Shown: positions 17,894 to 27,569, counted from the stretch's first letter. The stretch: 64,000 nt of DNA from an uncultured Acidobacteriota bacterium (GCA_963805975.1 CAWDVR010000001.1:1455911-1519910), one strand, 5' to 3'. Translations and numbers: made by a program. Notes: generated by a model not told the origin, from the sequence alone.

Positions 17894-18496
17894 ATGAGTG
17901 CCGCCCACCGCCCCCGCCCGGCCGAGAATGAGGTCAGGGAACCGCAGCAGGTGGCCTATGCCGCGGAAGCCCCGCGGGCGCTTTTTCTCGATCACGTCGT
18001 GGAACGCATCGCCACGGAGATGCGGTTCCTGGCCCGCGCTTATGCCGCGCAAGGCCGCTCTCTCGAGGAGCTGGGCTCGGCGGATGAGGTGGCCAACCGG
18101 ATGGTTGCCACCCTGCCCGCACCGTCCGGCTGGAACGCGGTGCTGGGACCGTTCTACGGCTCGGCCCAGATCGGCAAGATCCTGGGCAACGTCTCCCGGC
18201 AGGCGGTGGCCGACCGTCGGTCCCGGCGCACGCTGCTGGCTCTGCGCACTTCGGACGGCCAGTGGGTCTACCCGACCTTTCAGTTCGACGAGCGCCAGGA
18301 AGTTCTAACAGGCCTGCCGGCAGTAGTGCAGATCCTCGCCGAGAGCGGAGTCGACGACTGGACGCTGGCCGGCTGGCTGGTATCTCCGATGCGTTCCCTC
18401 GGCGGCGCCACTCCTATCGACTGGCTGCGTTCCGGGAACGACGCTGTGATTCTCCGGACCTTGGCGCGCGATGCAGCGCGGCGTTTCGCGCAGTAG
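17894..18496 (+). CDS. Xre/MbcA-like antitoxin
   Basis: HTH segment (VSRQAV), YPTFQF, and C-terminal WL.SP..SLGGATP.DWL. Lies directly upstream of a RES gene. Confidence 0.7.
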   Translation: MSAAHRPRPAENEVREPQQVAYAAEAPRALFLDHVVERIATEMRFLARAYAAQGRSLEELGSADEVANRMVATLPAPSGWNAVLGPFYGSAQIGKILGNVSRQAVADRRSRRTLLALRTSDGQWVYPTFQFDERQEVLTGLPAVVQILAESGVDDWTLAGWLVSPMRSLGGATPIDWLRSGNDAVILRTLARDAARRFAQ

Positions 18497-18513
18497 AACA
18501 AACGCCAGCCGCC

Positions 18514-19155
18514 GTGCCCAAGCGAAGCGAGACCGTGAGCCTGGCCCCGCCGCCGGCAGACCCGGCGGCGCTCGAGGGTTTTCCGCGGATGGTGCTCGAG
18601 AGCGTGACCTGCCTGTATCGCGTGGGCCGCGCCGAGCGCTCACCCTGGTGGTTCGGAAGCTCGCTCGAGGGCCGCTTCGATCTGCCCGAGCCCGACGGCA
18701 CCTGCTACGTGGCTCTCGATCCTCTCGCCGCCCTGCTGGAGGTGATCGGGCCCGACCGCGAGCGCGGCTATCTGAGCGCCGAGCACTTGGCTCGCCGTCG
18801 AATCTACGAGCTCTATCTCGAAGACGACCGCGTCCTTGCCGACCTCCCCGCAACGCAGGCCGCCGCCTTCGGAGTGACACTCGAGATCCACGCCATCGTT
18901 CCCTACGACCTTCCCCAGACCTGGGCGCACCGGCTCCGGGCCGCGGGATTCGAGGGCGTCCGATATCTCGTGCGTCACGATCCTTCGGGCGAAGACGGCC
19001 TCGCGCTGTTCGGCTCCCATGGCGGCCACCCGGACTGGCCAGTCGACGAGGAGAGGGAGATCGGCGCACAGATGCTCGAGCGGCTCGAGACCCGCTACGG
19101 CCTCAAGGTGCTCCGCATCCCACACTCGAGCCAGATCGAGGTCGTCGGCTCGTAG
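18514..19155 (+). CDS. RES-domain toxin
   Basis: LYRV, GRFDL, GTCYVALDPLAALLE, Q.WA, GFEGVRY, ALFG. Confidence 0.8.
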   Translation: MPKRSETVSLAPPPADPAALEGFPRMVLESVTCLYRVGRAERSPWWFGSSLEGRFDLPEPDGTCYVALDPLAALLEVIGPDRERGYLSAEHLARRRIYELYLEDDRVLADLPATQAAAFGVTLEIHAIVPYDLPQTWAHRLRAAGFEGVRYLVRHDPSGEDGLALFGSHGGHPDWPVDEEREIGAQMLERLETRYGLKVLRIPHSSQIEVVGS

Positions 19156-20481: not shown

Positions 20482-21117
20482 ATGGGCCAAGAGGAAGCCG
20501 GTGGTCTGCTGCAACGAGCCCTGGCCGGCGATCAGATCTCTCTGTCCCGCCTGGTTGCCGTGCTGACGCCGGTGATCCAGGCGCGGGCCGCGCGTACCTT
20601 GCTGCCCCGCCGCTCGCGTCTCGCCGACGGGCGAAGCATGCGGCAGGAGGTCGAGGACGTCAGCCAGGAGATCTTCGTCCTGCTCTTCTCCAACAACGCC
20701 CGGGTCCTGCGTAGCTGGCAGGCGGAGCGCGGCCTTTCTCTCGAGAACTTCGTCGGTCTGGTCACCCAACGGCAGATCGTCTCCTTCCTCCGCAGCGGCA
20801 AGCGGAACCCGTGGCGGGAGGAGCCCTTCGCCGCGGAGGATCTCCTCACCGAAGCGCCGGAGCCTGGGCCCGAGCAGGTCGCCGCCAGCCGCGAGCAACT
20901 TCGCCTGGTGCTCGATCGGCTACGGGCCGACGTAAGCCCCCTGGGCTGGCGGCTCTTCGAGCTGCTCTTCATCGAGGAGCTGCCGCTGCCCGAGGTCATG
21001 GCCGCGAGTGGCCTCTCCGCCGACGCGGTCTACGCCTGGCGGAGCCGTCTGCGCCGGCTGGCCCACCAGTTGCTGGCTGGCTTGTCAGGAAACTCGGCGG
21101 GCGGGCGAAATACGTAG
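20482..21117 (+). CDS. ECF-type RNA polymerase sigma factor
   Basis: Region 2 (VEDVSQEIFVLL) and region 4 HTH (EVMAASGLSADAVYAWRSRLRR); 211 aa. Confidence 0.85.
   Translation: MGQEEAGGLLQRALAGDQISLSRLVAVLTPVIQARAARTLLPRRSRLADGRSMRQEVEDVSQEIFVLLFSNNARVLRSWQAERGLSLENFVGLVTQRQIVSFLRSGKRNPWREEPFAAEDLLTEAPEPGPEQVAASREQLRLVLDRLRADVSPLGWRLFELLFIEELPLPEVMAASGLSADAVYAWRSRLRRLAHQLLAGLSGNSAGGRNT
21083..21109 (+). promoter_or_regulatory. putative ECF promoter, copy 1 (TGTCAG-N17-CGAA)
   Basis: TGTCAG gaaactcggcgggcggg CGAA, inside the sigma gene 3' end and just upstream of ATG 21132. Confidence 0.55.
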
Positions 21118-21131
21118 AGAGATGGCCACAC

Positions 21132-21947
21132 ATGAGTAAAGACCCACTGTTGAGCGATCTGGCGCGCCTGGCTCGCGAGGAAGACCGCGGCGAAGACATG
21201 GCCCTCGACGAGCGTTGGGATCGCCTTGCCGCGGGGACGCTCACCGCCGAAGAGGAGGCAGAGCTGAAGGCCCTCGCCGCGACCTCACCCGAGGCGCGGG
21301 ACGCCTACGAGGCCTTCCGGCCCCTCGGAGCCGAGTTCGAGGTTCGGATGGTGGCCGCGGCCGCCGCCGAGCTGAGCGGCGACCACCGAGAGGTCGACCC
21401 TCGGCCGGTGCCGGCTCGCGTGCTCCCGTTTCAGCGGCCTGCGGTGCGCCTGTGGGGCTCACTGGCCGCCGCAAGCGCGGTGGCGGCGTCGCTGCTCCTC
21501 CTCTTGCGCGGGCCGGGCGGACTGCCCCATCTGCCTGTCTACACCGCCGAGCTGAGCGGTGGGAGCCAGATCCTCCGCGGAGGCGACCTGGTCCTGGGGC
21601 CGCCGGTCTTCACCCTCGGTTCGTTGCTGACTCTCGAAGTCCGCCCGGCGCAGTCGGTGAATGGCCTGGTGGAAGCGCGCAGTTTCCTCACCCGCGGCGA
21701 GGAGGTGGTGCGCTGGGAGCGGGAGCCGCCCCTGGAGGTCGCCGGCGGCGCCGTGCGCCTGCGAGGAACGCTCGGCGAGGAGATCCGCCTGCCGGCGGGA
21801 GACTGGCGGCTGTGGATCGTCCTCGCCCGGCCAGGCGAGATGCCGTCGCCCGAGGAGGTCTTGGCAGATCGGGAGAGGAGCAGTGGGGGCCCCGGCTGGC
21901 AGGCGATTTCCGTGGAGCTGCGGGTGGAGGGCCTCTCCGACCCGTGA
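21132..21947 (+). CDS. putative membrane-anchored anti-sigma factor
   Basis: Directly follows the ECF gene. N-terminal segment WDRLAAGTLTAEEEAEL resembles anti-sigma domains, then one TM helix (LWGSLAAASAVAASLLLLL) and a beta-rich extracytoplasmic domain. Confidence 0.65.
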   Translation: MSKDPLLSDLARLAREEDRGEDMALDERWDRLAAGTLTAEEEAELKALAATSPEARDAYEAFRPLGAEFEVRMVAAAAAELSGDHREVDPRPVPARVLPFQRPAVRLWGSLAAASAVAASLLLLLRGPGGLPHLPVYTAELSGGSQILRGGDLVLGPPVFTLGSLLTLEVRPAQSVNGLVEARSFLTRGEEVVRWEREPPLEVAGGAVRLRGTLGEEIRLPAGDWRLWIVLARPGEMPSPEEVLADRERSSGGPGWQAISVELRVEGLSDP

Positions 21948-24685
21948 CCTCCCAGGAATCTCGGCCCGGCCGCGCCTTCGCCTTCCTCGTGGGCCTCGCC
22001 GGGGTGCTGCCGGGCTGCGGGCCCGGACCAGGGCCCGCGCCGCAGGTGGAGTATGCGCGTTGCTGGGCCGTGGACCTGCCCGGCCCGGTTTGCGTGCTCT
22101 ACCCTGATCGCCAGCTCAAGCTGTGGGTCGAGGCTGACCCTCGCGACAGCGTCGAGATCGAGGCCGGGGGCGAGCGCCTGCCAGCCACGGGCGAGGAAGT
22201 GGGGGGCGGCCGGCGTTACCTGCTGGAAGCTCCACCGGCGGCCACCACGCTCAACATCCGCCTGCACCGACCGGACGGCAGAGCGAGCGCGGCCTGGTCG
22301 CTGGCGCTCGCCGAGCCGGAGGCGCCGGCGTGGTTTGGCGAGATTCAAGGGCTTCTCGCGGCCGGCAAGACGGACGAGGCCCGGAGGGTGCTTGCTCCGC
22401 TGCGAGAGTCGGCGCCCGCTCGGCAGCAGGGACTGGTTCTGCAACTGCTGGCGCTGGCGGCCCTCTCCGCCGGAGACAAAGAAGGCGCCCTGGCCCATTT
22501 CGAGAGTGCCAAGGCAGCGGACCATGCCCGCCACCGGTTGAGCGGCGAGGCCCGGAACGCGGCCCTGCTAGCCCGGCTGCAACTGGAGAATGGCCGCTTC
22601 AGAGAGGCTCGTCAGAACCTGGGCGGCCTGTTGCTGACCGAGCCGGCACCGGCCGATGCGAAGGTTCTCGCGGCCTACTACGAGGGCCTCCTGGCGGACC
22701 AAGTGGGTGACTCCCGCCGGGCCTTGCAGCAGCTCCGAGAGGCTGCCGACCTGGCCGACCGAACCGGTCTCCTCCACTATCGCTGGCAGACCGAGCTGAC
22801 CCTGGCCCGGCTGCTCCGGGACCTCGGGCGCTCGCAGAGCGCGGAGGAGATCTTCGTGCGGCTTGCGGCGAACCCCCATTTCGAGACGCCTTGCGACCGT
22901 GGGGTCCTGCTCCAGAACTGGTCCTGGTCGCGGCTGATCGGTCGCGAGGGAGGCGAGGAGGCCATGGACCCGACCGCGATGCTGGAGGAAGCCCTCGCGT
23001 TCTTCGACCGTAACTCCTGCGCTCGTCCGGAGCAACGCCTCAACGCTCGTCTGAACCTCGCGCTCGCTCAGCAGCAGGCCGGCCGCTGGCGTGAGGCGCG
23101 CCGGCTGCTCGCCGAGGCACTGCCGCTGGCGGACCATGCGACCCTGCGCCAGCGCCTGTGGTGGCAGGATCTCGACGGCCGGGCAGCCATCGCCGAAGGC
23201 CAACCGGCGCGTGCCCTGCGCCTCTACCAGGCCCTCCAAGAGATAGCGGAGCAGTCCCTCTCGCGCGAAGGGAGCTTCCGGGCCTGCTTCGGCCGGGCCC
23301 GGGCGGAGCTCGCTCGGGGTCGCCGCGGTGCCGCCCTTGCCACCCTCGTGGAGGCGGATCGGCTCAGCGAGGAGCAGGTCTGGCAGATCCCGCTCCACGA
23401 GGGGCGCGACACTTTTCTTGCCATGCGCGAAGCCGCCACGCGGCTCCACCTGGAGCTCTTGCTGGCGGCCGGGCGGCACGAACAGGCCTTTGCCCTGGCG
23501 AGGCGTTCCCGCTCGCGACTGCTCCGGCAACTGATGGTGCGGGATCGCCTCGCCCAGCTCACCGCGGGAGAGCAGGAGGAATGGGACCGGGCGTTGTCCG
23601 ACTACCAGGCCTTGCGGGCCGAGATCGACCGCGAGGCTGCAGCGGCCTGGCAGCTGCCGAAAGATCAGGTCCGGCGAGCCGGCGAGGGCCGGGCCGCGCA
23701 GCTCGCGGGGGCCCTCGCGGAGCTCGACCGGGCCGTGGCCGGCCTGGGAGATCTCGCGCCGGGCGGCGAGGGGGCGCTCGCCCCGCCGCGGCCGGGTGAG
23801 CTGATCCTGGCCTACCACCCCTTGCCCGGGGGTTGGGTAGGCTTCGCTGCCCACCCCGGCGCGGTCGAGGTGCACCGCTTCGAGCTGTCGCGGGAAGAGC
23901 TCGCCCATCCCGCGGCTCTGGCCCTGAGGCTGCTCGAGCCCTTCCGCTCGGCGATCGCGCAGGCCGAACGGCTGCGGGTGCTGGCCTACGGTGATCTGAG
24001 GCCGATCGACTTCCACGCCCTGCCTTTCGCCGGTGAGCCCCTCCTCGCTCGGCTTCCCGTGATCTTCGGGCTCGATCTACCCACCCGCAGCGCCGCCGGC
24101 CGCGAGGGCCCGCGGATCGCCCTCCTGGTCACCGACCCGGAAGGCAACCTGCCGGCGGCACGGCAGGAGGCCGCCCAAGTCGCCGCGAGAATCGACGGTT
24201 GGGGCCCGGCGTGGGACCTCCGACGCCTCGACCGCCAGGCTGCCAGCGCCGGGGCACTGCGCGCCGCGCTTCCTCGAGCCGAGCTCTTCCACTACGCCGG
24301 TCACGGGGCCTTCGCGGGCTTCGCCGGCTGGGACAGCGTTCTGCGGCTGGCAGACAGCTCGCGGCTGACTCCCGCAGACATCCTGATCCTGCCCCAGGCC
24401 CCCGCCTGGGCCGTCCTCTCTGCCTGCGAAGCGGGGCGATCGTCCGGGGAGGCCCCGGGTGAAGGAATTGGCCTGGCGCAGGCGTTCCTGCTGGCCGGCA
24501 CGCGAGCGGTGGTCGCGGCCACCCGCCCGGTGACGGACCGTGCCGCTCGCGACCTGCTGGGAGAGCTCTACCGCGACTGGAAGCCCGGTGAGGATCTGGC
24601 GCAGGCGCTCCGGGCGGCCCAGCTCGCTTGCCGGCGGCAGGACCCGGCCGCTGACTGGGCGAGCTTCCGACTGCTCGAACCTTGA
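21944..24685 (+). CDS. TPR-CHAT (caspase-like clan CD) protease, probable lipoprotein
   Basis: GTG 21944 overlaps the upstream stop. Lipobox-like GVLPGC, helical repeats, CHAT dyad motifs FHYAGHG and VLSACE, GLAQAFLLAG, terminal WASF. Confidence 0.85.
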   Translation: MTSQESRPGRAFAFLVGLAGVLPGCGPGPGPAPQVEYARCWAVDLPGPVCVLYPDRQLKLWVEADPRDSVEIEAGGERLPATGEEVGGGRRYLLEAPPAATTLNIRLHRPDGRASAAWSLALAEPEAPAWFGEIQGLLAAGKTDEARRVLAPLRESAPARQQGLVLQLLALAALSAGDKEGALAHFESAKAADHARHRLSGEARNAALLARLQLENGRFREARQNLGGLLLTEPAPADAKVLAAYYEGLLADQVGDSRRALQQLREAADLADRTGLLHYRWQTELTLARLLRDLGRSQSAEEIFVRLAANPHFETPCDRGVLLQNWSWSRLIGREGGEEAMDPTAMLEEALAFFDRNSCARPEQRLNARLNLALAQQQAGRWREARRLLAEALPLADHATLRQRLWWQDLDGRAAIAEGQPARALRLYQALQEIAEQSLSREGSFRACFGRARAELARGRRGAALATLVEADRLSEEQVWQIPLHEGRDTFLAMREAATRLHLELLLAAGRHEQAFALARRSRSRLLRQLMVRDRLAQLTAGEQEEWDRALSDYQALRAEIDREAAAAWQLPKDQVRRAGEGRAAQLAGALAELDRAVAGLGDLAPGGEGALAPPRPGELILAYHPLPGGWVGFAAHPGAVEVHRFELSREELAHPAALALRLLEPFRSAIAQAERLRVLAYGDLRPIDFHALPFAGEPLLARLPVIFGLDLPTRSAAGREGPRIALLVTDPEGNLPAARQEAAQVAARIDGWGPAWDLRRLDRQAASAGALRAALPRAELFHYAGHGAFAGFAGWDSVLRLADSSRLTPADILILPQAPAWAVLSACEAGRSSGEAPGEGIGLAQAFLLAGTRAVVAATRPVTDRAARDLLGELYRDWKPGEDLAQALRAAQLACRRQDPAADWASFRLLEP

Positions 24686-24702: not shown

Positions 24703-24729
24703 TGTCAGAAACCTCCGCTTCGCCGCGAA
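24703..24729 (+). promoter_or_regulatory. putative ECF promoter, copy 2
   Basis: TGTCAG aaacctccgcttcgccg CGAA in the intergenic region upstream of the S8 gene. Confidence 0.6.
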
Positions 24730-24816: not shown

Positions 24817-26961
24817 ATGAAATCCGGAAGCCTTTGTGTCGTAGCCCTGATCGGATTGGTGTGGGCCGCCGCCGGGCATGCGGCTTCGGTGTCGATCCCA
24901 CCCGAAGGCGAAGCCGACTACCCGCAAACGCCGGTCGTGGTGCCACAGACGAGTCGGTCGATCGATCCCAAGAGCGCCATCGCGCACTGGCGGCAGATCG
25001 GCCTGCGGAGCAAGGCCACGGACCGGTGCCCAACGGTGGATGGTTGGGCCGTCGAGAGCCTGCTGAGCCGAGCTCTCTCCTCGACGAACTGTGGGCCCGA
25101 GACCCTCGACCCCCAAGGCCCGTCCGAGGCCGCGCTCCGCGAGGAGCTGACAGACCTCGCCTTGCTGCGAAAGCTTGGGCTGGATCGGATCTGCCTCTAC
25201 ACCGCCGACCCGCGCAACATTCCAGCCTTCAAGAAGGACGGCAAGCTGCCCGCCGACCTGGTGGCAGCGGCACCAGATCGCATGGCCCTGGCGCCAGCCG
25301 CGACGCCGGAAGCTTCGCTCGGCACGCTGGCCTTGGAGAGCTGGCAGATCCTGCGCACCCATTTCCTGGAGCAGGCTGGCAACACCTTCGATCCCGCCAA
25401 CCGGCTGCGCTTCACCGGCAAGCCGAGCGTCCGCCTGGTCTTCCTCGATACCCATCCAACCGGCGAGCGTGTACCGAGCGGTCCCGGTCGCTCGTTTCAC
25501 GGCTACACCCTGGCCCACTTGGCCAACCAACTCATTTGCGGTGGCGAAGCCGGCTGTGCGGTCGAGATCGATACCCGCCTCGCAATGCCCTATGTGAACT
25601 TCGATGAATCGTCCGCCGACGAGGAGAGAGGAGGAAAGATGGGCCTGGTGGCCAACCTCTCTGCGGCGATCCTCGAGGAGGTTTGGCAGTGGCGGCGGGA
25701 TCGCGACCCTGACCGGCCAAAGCACCTGGTGCTCAACCTGTCGTTGGGTTGGGATGGCGAGCTCTTCGGCGATCTCAACGCGCAGACCGTCTCCAGGCTC
25801 GAACCGGGGGTCAGGGCGGTCTACGACGCGCTGACCTTCGCCCGCGACCTCGGAGTGCTGGTGGTTGCCGCCGCCGGCAACGAGCGCGGGGGGCCGGCGA
25901 AGCCCTCCAGCCCCCTGTTTCCCGCCGTCTGGGAGCTGCATAGGCCAGCCAGTGGGCCATTCGCTTCTTGCAGAAAACCGATCTACGCCGTCGGCGGAGT
26001 GGACTGGCAAGGGCTGCCGGTGGCCAACGCCCGCACTGATGGCAAACCACGGCGTTCCGCCTACGCGGATCACGCCGTGACCGGCACCGAAGCCAGAGGA
26101 GCCGAGAGTCCTACGTGGATCTACACCGGAACCTCGGTGGGGGCCGCCGTCACCTCGTCGATCGCCGCCGCCGTCTGGCACCTGCGCCCGGAGCTGGGCC
26201 CAGGCCAGGTAATGAGGTTGATCGACCGCTCCGGAGAATCCCTGGAGGCGCGTGCCGACTTCTACCCCTGGCAGCGGAATCCGCTACTGCGCTGGATCCG
26301 AGGCGAACCGCGGCTCCGCCGGGTGTCTCTCTGCCGCGCGACCGCTCTCGCCCGGGGCCGAGGGCCGGAGTGCTTCTGCCCCAAGTGGAGACGCGAGCCG
26401 CCGGTGCTGGCGCGCCCGATGCCTCCCCCAGCGACCGATTTCGTGGAGAGCGACCCGGAAGCCTATGGTCAGCGCTGCACGTCCACCAGACGGCTGATGG
26501 TCAACGACAACCTCCTGCCAAAGGAGATCTGCCCGGCGGAGAGATTCGGCGACATCGCCAGTCAGCGCTGGACCTTTCCCCAGCCCGAGGACAACCCCTG
26601 CATGGGCTGCGCGCTGATCCCGCCGCGAGAAACCGCCACCTTTCCGGAGCCCGAGGGCCCTCCGCCTTACACCCTGCAGATGGCCCTTCGTCCTGGGTGG
26701 CGCGACGAGGGCGCCGAGATCCTCGCCGCCACCCTCGACATCGAGCGTTTCGAGGGCGACCGGATGACCTACGTGATTTCTCAGGAACATATCGATAGGC
26801 TCAATGATCGAGACCCAATCCCGACCGGGACCAGCATCCAGCTTCTATTCAGCTTGGCCGACCGCGGGTCGCTCTGGGGCTGCACGGCCCGGCTCAACTT
26901 CAAGGTGAGGCGCGGCGACGAGGTCACATCGATCATCGACCCGGTGATCGTGGACCCCTAG
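24817..26961 (+). CDS. secreted S8 (subtilisin-like) serine peptidase, Cys-rich
   Basis: Signal peptide; triad motifs LVFLDT, FHGYTLA and YTGTSVGAA; NLSLG; oxyanion motif VAAAGNE. Confidence 0.85.
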   Translation: MKSGSLCVVALIGLVWAAAGHAASVSIPPEGEADYPQTPVVVPQTSRSIDPKSAIAHWRQIGLRSKATDRCPTVDGWAVESLLSRALSSTNCGPETLDPQGPSEAALREELTDLALLRKLGLDRICLYTADPRNIPAFKKDGKLPADLVAAAPDRMALAPAATPEASLGTLALESWQILRTHFLEQAGNTFDPANRLRFTGKPSVRLVFLDTHPTGERVPSGPGRSFHGYTLAHLANQLICGGEAGCAVEIDTRLAMPYVNFDESSADEERGGKMGLVANLSAAILEEVWQWRRDRDPDRPKHLVLNLSLGWDGELFGDLNAQTVSRLEPGVRAVYDALTFARDLGVLVVAAAGNERGGPAKPSSPLFPAVWELHRPASGPFASCRKPIYAVGGVDWQGLPVANARTDGKPRRSAYADHAVTGTEARGAESPTWIYTGTSVGAAVTSSIAAAVWHLRPELGPGQVMRLIDRSGESLEARADFYPWQRNPLLRWIRGEPRLRRVSLCRATALARGRGPECFCPKWRREPPVLARPMPPPATDFVESDPEAYGQRCTSTRRLMVNDNLLPKEICPAERFGDIASQRWTFPQPEDNPCMGCALIPPRETATFPEPEGPPPYTLQMALRPGWRDEGAEILAATLDIERFEGDRMTYVISQEHIDRLNDRDPIPTGTSIQLLFSLADRGSLWGCTARLNFKVRRGDEVTSIIDPVIVDP

Positions 26962-26983
26962 CGGAATCTCTACGTCTCGCCTC

Positions 26984-27021
26984 ACGCTGCCGGCCGGGGT
27001 CGAGCCCTCGGCCGGCAGCGT
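26984..27021. terminator. hairpin between convergent genes (possible bidirectional terminator)
   Basis: 13-bp perfect inverted repeat ACGCTGCCGGCCG / CGGCCGGCAGCGT; no U-tract. Confidence 0.5.
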
Positions 27022-27285
27022 TCACTGCTCGAGCTCTTCATGGGGCGAGACGGCATACGCTTCGTCGTCTCCGCCGGGCACCAACGTGCAACCCATGCAC
27101 GGGTTGTTCGCGGGCTTGTCCCACGCCCGTACTAACCACCGCTGTAGGAGCTCCCAGAGAGCGCCGACCCCGAAGACCGTTTTCGCCCCACCACGCACCG
27201 GCGCCGCCCCCGCAAGGGACGATCCCGACAGCATGGCAAGGGCTACCACCACGACCACCGCGAAGCGCAGCTCACGTCGTGCCAT
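27022..27285 (-). CDS. small secreted protein (87 aa) with NPCMGC motif
   Basis: GGAGG SD before ATG 27285; signal peptide (MARRELRFAVVVVVALAMLSGSSLAGA); Trp-rich amphipathic segment; then KPANNPCMGCTLVP. Confidence 0.75.
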   Translation of the reverse strand: MARRELRFAVVVVVALAMLSGSSLAGAAPVRGGAKTVFGVGALWELLQRWLVRAWDKPANNPCMGCTLVPGGDDEAYAVSPHEELEQ

Positions 27286-27374
27286 GCCGTCCTCCGTTCG
27301 CTTGCAAGCCCCGCCGGCCACCGTCGGTCGAGTCGGTTCCGGTACTCTAACCCGCGGGCGGTTCACGGTTCTGC

Positions 27375-27401
27375 TGTCAGAAATCCCCCGCGGCCAGCGA
27401 A
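27375..27401 (+). promoter_or_regulatory. putative ECF promoter, copy 3
   Basis: TGTCAG aaatcccccgcggccag CGAA. Confidence 0.55.
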
Positions 27402-27569
27402 GTGCTCTGTATCGAGGCCGGAAGACAGGATCTCCCTGTTTTCACGAGCACGGAGTACTTCATCATGGCAAACGAACGGAGCTTGCGTCGTCGGGAAAAG
27501 CAAGCGATCTACAGCCTCGTAGCGACTTCACAGTGGCCGGGAGAGTGGAGCTGAGGGGCCCGAAAGGGG

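Follow-up and report, generated by a model that had tools for sequence, protein, structure and literature searches.

A proline-led cysteine-pair motif shared by a predicted secreted subtilase and predicted small peptide precursors points to a candidate peptide ligand for a TPR-CHAT protease

Why should a predicted secreted protease and a predicted small secreted protein encoded beside it on the opposite strand carry the same short cysteine motif? The question is raised by a 64,000-nucleotide stretch of DNA from an uncultured Acidobacteriota bacterium (GCA_963805975.1, CAWDVR010000001.1:1455911-1519910; the window), in which a predicted S8 subtilase of 714 amino acids (aa) and a convergent open reading frame (ORF) of 87 aa share a stretch around the residues NPCMGC. 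The subtilase is the last of four separate genes on the plus strand, encoding in order an extracytoplasmic function (ECF)-like sigma factor, a membrane anti-sigma factor, a lipoprotein TPR-CHAT protein and the subtilase, here called the cassette. The reading favoured here, with a probability of about 0.55, is that a peptide of the form P-x4-C-x2-C is the activating ligand of the TPR-CHAT protein, supplied both tethered in the subtilase, as feedback, and free. The shared feature is genuine, and it suggests a ligand logic not yet described, in a cassette that is widespread.

The original prediction placed the shared motif in the subtilase at 26581-26622 on the plus strand (Q589-P602) and in the small ORF at 27120-27076 on the minus strand (D56-P70), and both copies were found at these positions. 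In six-frame translation of the 5.36-Mb source genome NPCMGC occurs exactly twice, both times at this locus. When a position-specific scoring matrix made from 104 subtilase motifs was run across the approximately 10 million residues of the source genome, the subtilase site came out on top with 34.3 bits, ahead of the small ORF with 31.2 bits and of a third match at 21.6 bits. The free copy spans P58-P70 (27076..27114, minus strand), where nine of the 13 residues counted from the shared Pro are the same as in the subtilase. Five of the 13 codons are identical, four differ synonymously and four non-synonymously; silent differences are therefore found in four of the nine codons for identical residues, as had been claimed. 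The motif as originally defined had to be revised: the match is genuine, but NPCMGC is merely a local allele and the family-wide motif, judged from the aligned sequences, is P-x4-C-x2-C.

The subtilase (24817..26961, plus strand) is predicted to be secreted and to consist of a signal peptide, a prodomain, a catalytic part with the triad D211/H228/S440, a linker carrying the motif and a C-terminal beta domain. It matches the Pfam S8 family, the triad and the oxyanion residue N355 are 97-100% conserved in 120 sequences, and its AlphaFold2 model (predicted local distance difference test score, pLDDT, 85.6) has a fold matching subtilisins. The tethered motif, W-x-x-P-Q and then P-x4-C-x2-C (W585-P602; 26569..26622, plus strand, the codon of Pro590 starting at 26584), lies in a linker which is otherwise poorly conserved among the 120 homologues. 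Here P590 is conserved in 99%, C595 and C598 in 98% each and Q589 in 94%, and the proposed selection on the peptide is supported, as strong selection, in the subtilase. In the model, residues 581-590 have a mean pLDDT of 52 and the CxxC of about 82, the end of the motif forming a strand beside the C-terminal domain.

When searching genome contigs a single subtilase as query gave no match, while an alignment query succeeded, and P-x4-C-x2-C was found in 117 of 122 distinct genomic subtilase ORFs. Among the five without it, one is truncated at the end of a contig, one has a frameshift and two have another residue in place of the first Cys; in the latter two (L304 in G316 and L308 in G314) a His is found just before the replaced Cys, a hint of metal binding in some alleles. 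Twenty subtilases end 12-17 residues past the motif Pro, having lost the C-terminal domain and retained the motif (a 21st short one stops at a contig edge and is not counted among them). The motif is also kept in a second, distant clade of CHAT-linked subtilases, where the preceding residue is variable (Gln, Leu, Thr, Cys or Gly).

The small ORF (27022..27285, minus strand) would encode a peptide precursor with a signal peptide, a Trp-rich helix running to W-D-K, and then the core. It looks coding, with a GC content by codon position of 0.74/0.51/0.77, resembling that of adjoining genes, and a hydrophobic N-terminus; a putative ribosome-binding site, GGAGG (27291..27295, minus strand), can be read 5 nt ahead of the ATG. 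Over residues 1-57 the small ORF aligns with a secreted precursor from the same genome (score 79, reached by 0 of 1000 shuffles), one of three precursors of the source genome informally named DPNG-type, and more weakly with the other two (6 and 7 of 1000 shuffles). The DPNG-type precursors, which have DPxG repeat cores (G000 C1:196253-196585, C1:963912-964262 and C5:628730-629116), each contain a signal peptide and a Lys before the core, with a clear Trp-rich helix in two, and each adjoins a long ORF, one of which was identified as a TPR-type regulator. The small ORF has the leader pattern of this group, signal peptide, Trp-rich helix, Lys and then core, but neither DPxG repeats nor an adjacent TPR regulator; its core is the subtilase motif and its neighbour the subtilase. 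Because the subtilase motif, from its Pro, follows W-D-K, the small ORF can be described as chimeric, joining an export scaffold of its own genome to the motif. The 87-aa gene is a local invention, in which the conserved element is the motif; a motif-weighted profile run against proteins of 8-154 residues returned solely sequences that were already aligned (3 of 266 candidates).

Predicted free peptide genes with the motif were also found in five further genomes, behind two other types of leader and each time starting at the same Pro, giving six genomes in all (G000, the source, with G486, G277, G319, G324 and G181) and agreeing with the original proposal of tethered and free display. In G486 an 82-aa ORF with a signal peptide, divergent from the sigma gene, contains PGNNPCSNC. 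The third leader type lies outside the cassette and reads M-x-V-x-T-x-[LIV]-x-A-G, followed directly by the motif. Genes with this Ala-Gly leader occur as three in tandem plus one in G277, as five in tandem in both G319 and G324, and singly in G181; the motif genes of all four genomes have ribosome-binding sites, and in one of the five G324 peptides Tyr replaces the first Cys. Among 25 distinct Ala-Gly-leader peptides, 15 contain Cys, 14 have exactly P-x4-C-x2-C and 10 have unrelated Cys-free cores. The cassette is present in all six free-peptide genomes, but also in 17 of the 24 genomes of the family holding four of them.

The Cys-free peptides, with cores ending for example in DPIET or DPR and often arranged in tandem (L268/L292, L270, L271, L278, L279 and L286), in some cases adjoin HlyD and ABC exporter genes or an ATP-grasp gene; they could be modified peptides or act as signals for other receptors. 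The conserved C-terminal P-V-x-V-D-P of the window's subtilase (26941-26958) resembles such cores (L279), possibly by chance. None of nine Ala-Gly-leader peptides compared with NCBIfam gave a match. The protein library contributed two more motif carriers, P0122 and P0124, the latter an 88-aa precursor with two leader repeats, an NHNET stretch and a terminal P-x4-C-x2-C core. Two extra motif copies were rejected as free peptides: the one in G478 (L201:6061-6291) is a 3'-end duplication of a short subtilase, without a signal peptide and with a diverged motif, possibly an intermediate in the making of new alleles, and the one in G487 belongs to the end of a subtilase with a frameshift. Searches with degenerate DNA patterns for Q-P-x4-C-x2-C and A-G-P-x4-C-x2-C matched about as often as their reversed controls and brought no new peptides, and nine myxobacterial genomes gave no free peptide with these queries, in searches that were noisy and are not proof of absence. 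Neither the motif nor the leaders nor any peptide acting as ligand of a TPR-CHAT protein was found described in the literature, though closed papers or supplements may contain such a description.

The first gene of the cassette, conserved in this position, encodes an ECF-type sigma factor of 211 aa (20482..21117, plus strand) with a weak match to NCBIfam sigma70-ECF (E 4e-6, under the cut-off of the model) and none to Pfam. It is followed by a predicted single-pass membrane anti-sigma factor (21132..21947, plus strand), its topology read from the sequence, which matched no family in Pfam or NCBIfam; its periplasmic part contains a conserved R-G (Arg in 91% and Gly in 73% of 78 aligned homologues), a candidate cut site for the CHAT protease. 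The TPR-CHAT caspase-like protease itself (913 aa; 21944..24685, plus strand) has a lipoprotein-like N-terminus, with a lipobox-like start in 36 of 40 homologues checked, a Pfam CHAT match (E 4e-30) and the dyad H787/C828, the His-Cys pair being invariant in 66 sequences. A TPR solenoid followed by a CHAT domain with this dyad is supported by Pfam, the dyad, the structural model and the fold search alike. The best match in the PDB was DdvA, both by sequence (E 1.6e-14) and by fold, with Csx29 chains next and separase also found by fold. This protein would be the peptide receptor.

The cassette subtilase was found in 91 of 300 genomes of the same order, and the named relatives belong to Thermoanaerobaculia and Myxococcota. 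At 108 fetched subtilase loci, which were not de-duplicated and include a few duplicates, a CHAT gene was present in 97 cases and all four cassette genes in 80; at a few loci the anti-sigma and CHAT matches fall within one open frame, as candidate fusions. A second clade of cassettes, made up of CHAT, a small partner and a subtilase (L252-L255, L309-L323), has the same P-x4-C-x2-C and reaches three copies per genome in G324, and Sorangium cellulosum So ce56 (L017, NC_010162.1) contains two tandem CHAT-subtilase pairs with related motifs, which offers a named strain for experimental work.

When analysing the region upstream of the subtilase a strict ECF-type promoter, GTCAGAAA-N13-GCGAA, was identified at 24704..24729 (plus strand). 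Of 80 intergenic segments between CHAT gene and subtilase, 62 contain this promoter in sense orientation and none contains it in antisense (0 of 80); the source genome has just two strict copies, at 24704 and 27376. The second of these (27376..27401, plus strand) points away from the small ORF and into an ORF of 29 aa (27465..27554, plus strand), possibly the remnant of a regulon gene on weak sequence evidence; the genes driven from this promoter position at homologous loci are longer, and one of them begins with the same four residues. A variant, GTCAG ... GCGAA (21084..21109, plus strand), is located at the end of the sigma gene ahead of the anti-sigma and TPR-CHAT genes, and precedes the anti-sigma gene in several homologous loci as well. 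On this promoter evidence the subtilase, and not the small ORF, is a likely target of the sigma factor. A sigma-driven small ORF was considered and rejected, as the nearby promoter faces the opposite way, and a search around the small ORF for a sigma-70 promoter and a terminator found neither.

At other loci (L117, L126, L131, L134, L135, L138, L143, L146, L151 and L153) the sigma promoter is repeated downstream of the subtilase before further genes, among them genes for secreted proteins and for a protein that recurs and contains a QNPNYFG-like stretch, and these are read as a local regulon. A near match to the cassette promoter is found upstream of the three G277 peptide genes (L206:2190-2220, minus strand), which may be sigma-driven, unlike the small ORF of the window.

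To address the proposal that the peptide is the signal for the TPR-CHAT sensor, the co-folding that had been named as a check was run on our own alignments with the TPR-CHAT protein (884 residues) and the 30-residue core of the small ORF. This gave a score of 0.49 against 0.01 for the best of three controls, the runs agreeing in at least 70% of contacts with a pLDDT of 45-50 for the partner. In the benchmark, 116 of the 157 solved pairs and 2 of the 215 mismatched ones passed the mark, and at scores of 0.60 or less just 18 solved pairs and both mismatches did, so the model lends weak support to binding of the peptide by the TPR-CHAT protein. Each free peptide was also scored against 111 subtilase motifs from 83 genomes, with relatedness uncontrolled. 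The motif from the own genome ranked at the top for the source genome, where 0.9% of the others did equally well, for each of the five G324 peptides, where none did, and for two of the four in G277; free peptides thus match the subtilase of their own genome in three of the six genomes, partly so in G277. Covariation within a locus, which had also been predicted, fails at the second free-peptide locus, where the G486 subtilase has PEDNPCPGC.

Taken together, the favoured reading is that processing would expose the Pro as a new N-terminus, the residue before the cut being Gln in the subtilase and, in the free precursors, Lys or the end of Ala-Gly, and that the two Cys would close a small loop. 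The peptide would then bind the predicted periplasmic TPR-CHAT lipoprotein, the activated CHAT protease would cut the anti-sigma factor at R-G, intramembrane proteolysis would follow, as shown for truncated DdvA, and the freed sigma factor would transcribe the subtilase from its conserved promoter. More subtilase would release more peptide, closing a positive feedback. The 87-aa gene would be specific to this lineage and have arisen when the motif was captured by an existing scaffold for export and processing, and because it has no sigma promoter in its own direction it could act as a starter signal independent of the loop. In favour of this reading, the motif follows three unrelated leaders and begins at the same Pro in each, and it is retained where the C-terminal domain of the subtilase is lost. 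Since the free copies keep the residues after the Pro and drop those before it, which a mimic of a subtilase substrate would need, the part after the cut appears to matter, and the earlier suggestion of a substrate mimic loses ground. A wider picture, to which we give slightly less than an even chance, is one of self-amplifying signalling with a periplasmic caspase-like protease as receptor, in which a Pro-started, Cys-closed ligand is stored in the linker of the induced protease and bacteria have repeatedly placed it behind unrelated export leaders, yielding diffusible signals, specific to the allele, that address self or neighbours or serve for jamming.

Several observations weigh against the favoured reading. 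The motif itself recurs at homologous loci but a free-peptide ORF is found at just 2 of 108, leaving 106 without a free gene nearby, and this patchy spread is a weak point of a role as TPR-CHAT signal; nor was any homologue of the 87-aa ORF beyond itself found in the protein collection (2 candidates), so that the small ORF as such is not conserved there. Subtilisins usually disfavour Pro at P1', and the predicted prodomain site of this subtilase is A-L, not P-Q. All 25 Ala-Gly-leader peptides begin with Pro, a count biased by a search profile which itself contained that Pro; because this includes the 10 without Cys, the Ala-Gly leader is not independent proof of an N-terminal Pro. Free peptides of G319 match the subtilase of their own genome in a middling to weak manner, and those of G486 and G181 do not match their own detected subtilases and closely match those of other genomes. 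A co-evolution of motif and TPR beyond the history of the subtilase itself, positive in a plain permutation (3 of 499) with a peak in the first TPRs over 67 loci, did not survive the controls, as 11 of 88 variability-matched control windows reached the observed value, and 24 of 88 with a maximum statistic. A further weak point is that the data carry no sign of agonist versus antagonist.

This last point leads to the rival explanations. The tethered motif may be the true agonist and the free peptides antagonists or agents of cross-talk, damping the loop or hitting neighbours with other alleles. The better fit of the G486, G181 and G319 peptides to motifs of other genomes suits this, as does the position of the window's free gene outside sigma promoter control, which would be appropriate for a constitutive buffer. 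The free peptide nevertheless tracks its own subtilase in the source genome, in G324 and partly in G277, and the mismatches may reflect unassembled loci in G319 (85% complete) and G181 (260 contigs), an explanation that does not extend to G486, a single contig. We regard this account as unlikely, though the best placed of the rivals. Next comes a role internal to the subtilase, in which the motif would serve for self-processing, as a disulfide knot or for binding a metal, with the small ORF either functionless or a copy directed at the subtilase, for instance as substrate mimic or inhibitor. The modelled strand beside the C-terminal domain, the two subtilases with a swapped first Cys and a His before it, and the G478 relic, which demonstrates that the 3' end of a subtilase can be duplicated without a signal peptide, would all be at home here. 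Against them stand the survival of the motif after loss of the C-terminal domain, free copies lacking the residues before the Pro that a mimic requires, and the independent acquisition of the motif by three export leaders together with its tandem arrays with ribosome-binding sites, which are hard to explain unless the free peptide functions; this explanation, too, is held to be unlikely.

The binding prediction and the promoter logic would fit equally well with a securin-like inhibitor that holds the TPR-CHAT protein off, so that loss or reduction of the peptide triggers the sigma factor and the feedback is negative. Separase, a structural relative, is indeed held off by securin, but DdvA and Csx29 stay inactive until they are triggered allosterically (PMC11506125 for both statements). 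Allelic variety in a small exported peptide would also be more typical of activating signals, and this arrangement is judged improbable, the least favoured of those considered. The activating ligand is therefore retained as the preferred reading.

Elsewhere in the window, at 17894-19155, a pair of genes (a 200-aa protein and a downstream ORF) resembles an antitoxin with a RES-type toxin.

If the favoured reading is true, the motif would be the first peptide ligand to be defined for a TPR-CHAT switch of the cell envelope. The gene fusions delimit a candidate ligand of 12-30 residues with a defined start and, together with a candidate anti-sigma cut site and a promoter for a reporter, make it testable with synthetic peptides. 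The cassette is widespread, with related ones in myxobacteria including Sorangium cellulosum So ce56, and a peptide-gated protease with allelic ligands could, if true, serve as a programmable sensor part.

In the RRNPP systems (Rap-Phr, NprR, AimR) an exported precursor is processed to a short peptide which is read by a TPR protein. There the receptor is cytoplasmic and the peptide re-imported, whereas the lipobox-like receptor proposed here (36 of 40) would need no re-import; it would moreover be a periplasmic protease, with a protease linker as the main source of peptide and a sigma factor as output. Animal protease-activated (tethered-ligand) receptors, where a cut exposes an agonist N-terminus that free peptides mimic, offer an analogy and no homology, and here the ligand is tethered to the protease rather than to the receptor.

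ECF54 resembles the cassette in that an ECF sigma factor is encoded near a subtilase and a TPR-CHAT protein, with a proposed proteolytic control (PMC8999054, PMC7826278). ECF54 is 100% actinobacterial, has no putative anti-sigma factor and uses the promoter GTATCAG/CTCC (PMC7826278). The present cassette is found in Thermoanaerobaculia and Myxococcota, encodes a membrane anti-sigma-like protein and has the promoter GTCAGAAA/GCGAA. The Craspase system, Csx29-Csx30-CASP-sigma (PMC10028731), has a ligand-gated TPR-CHAT protease cutting an anti-sigma factor, but is cytoplasmic and triggered by RNA via Cas7-11, whereas the trigger proposed here is an exported peptide and no CRISPR link was seen at the window locus. 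Separases cut after Arg and craspases do not (PMC11506125).

The closest likeness is to DdvS/DdvA of Myxococcus xanthus, in which an ECF sigma factor is held by a membrane anti-sigma factor and a periplasmic TPR-CHAT domain is the proposed site-1 protease; the signal of DdvA is described as still elusive, with a phage pattern proposed (PMC11506125). Sigma factor, membrane anti-sigma factor and periplasmic TPR-CHAT, here as predictions, are common to both systems, and DdvA is the top PDB match. DdvA joins the sigma-binding domain, membrane helix and TPR-CHAT in one chain, whereas these are separate genes here, accompanied by a predicted lipoprotein form of the TPR-CHAT protein, a cassette subtilase and an encoded candidate peptide ligand. 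The cassette would thus work like DdvS/DdvA with the sensor split off, yet it is not a DdvA.

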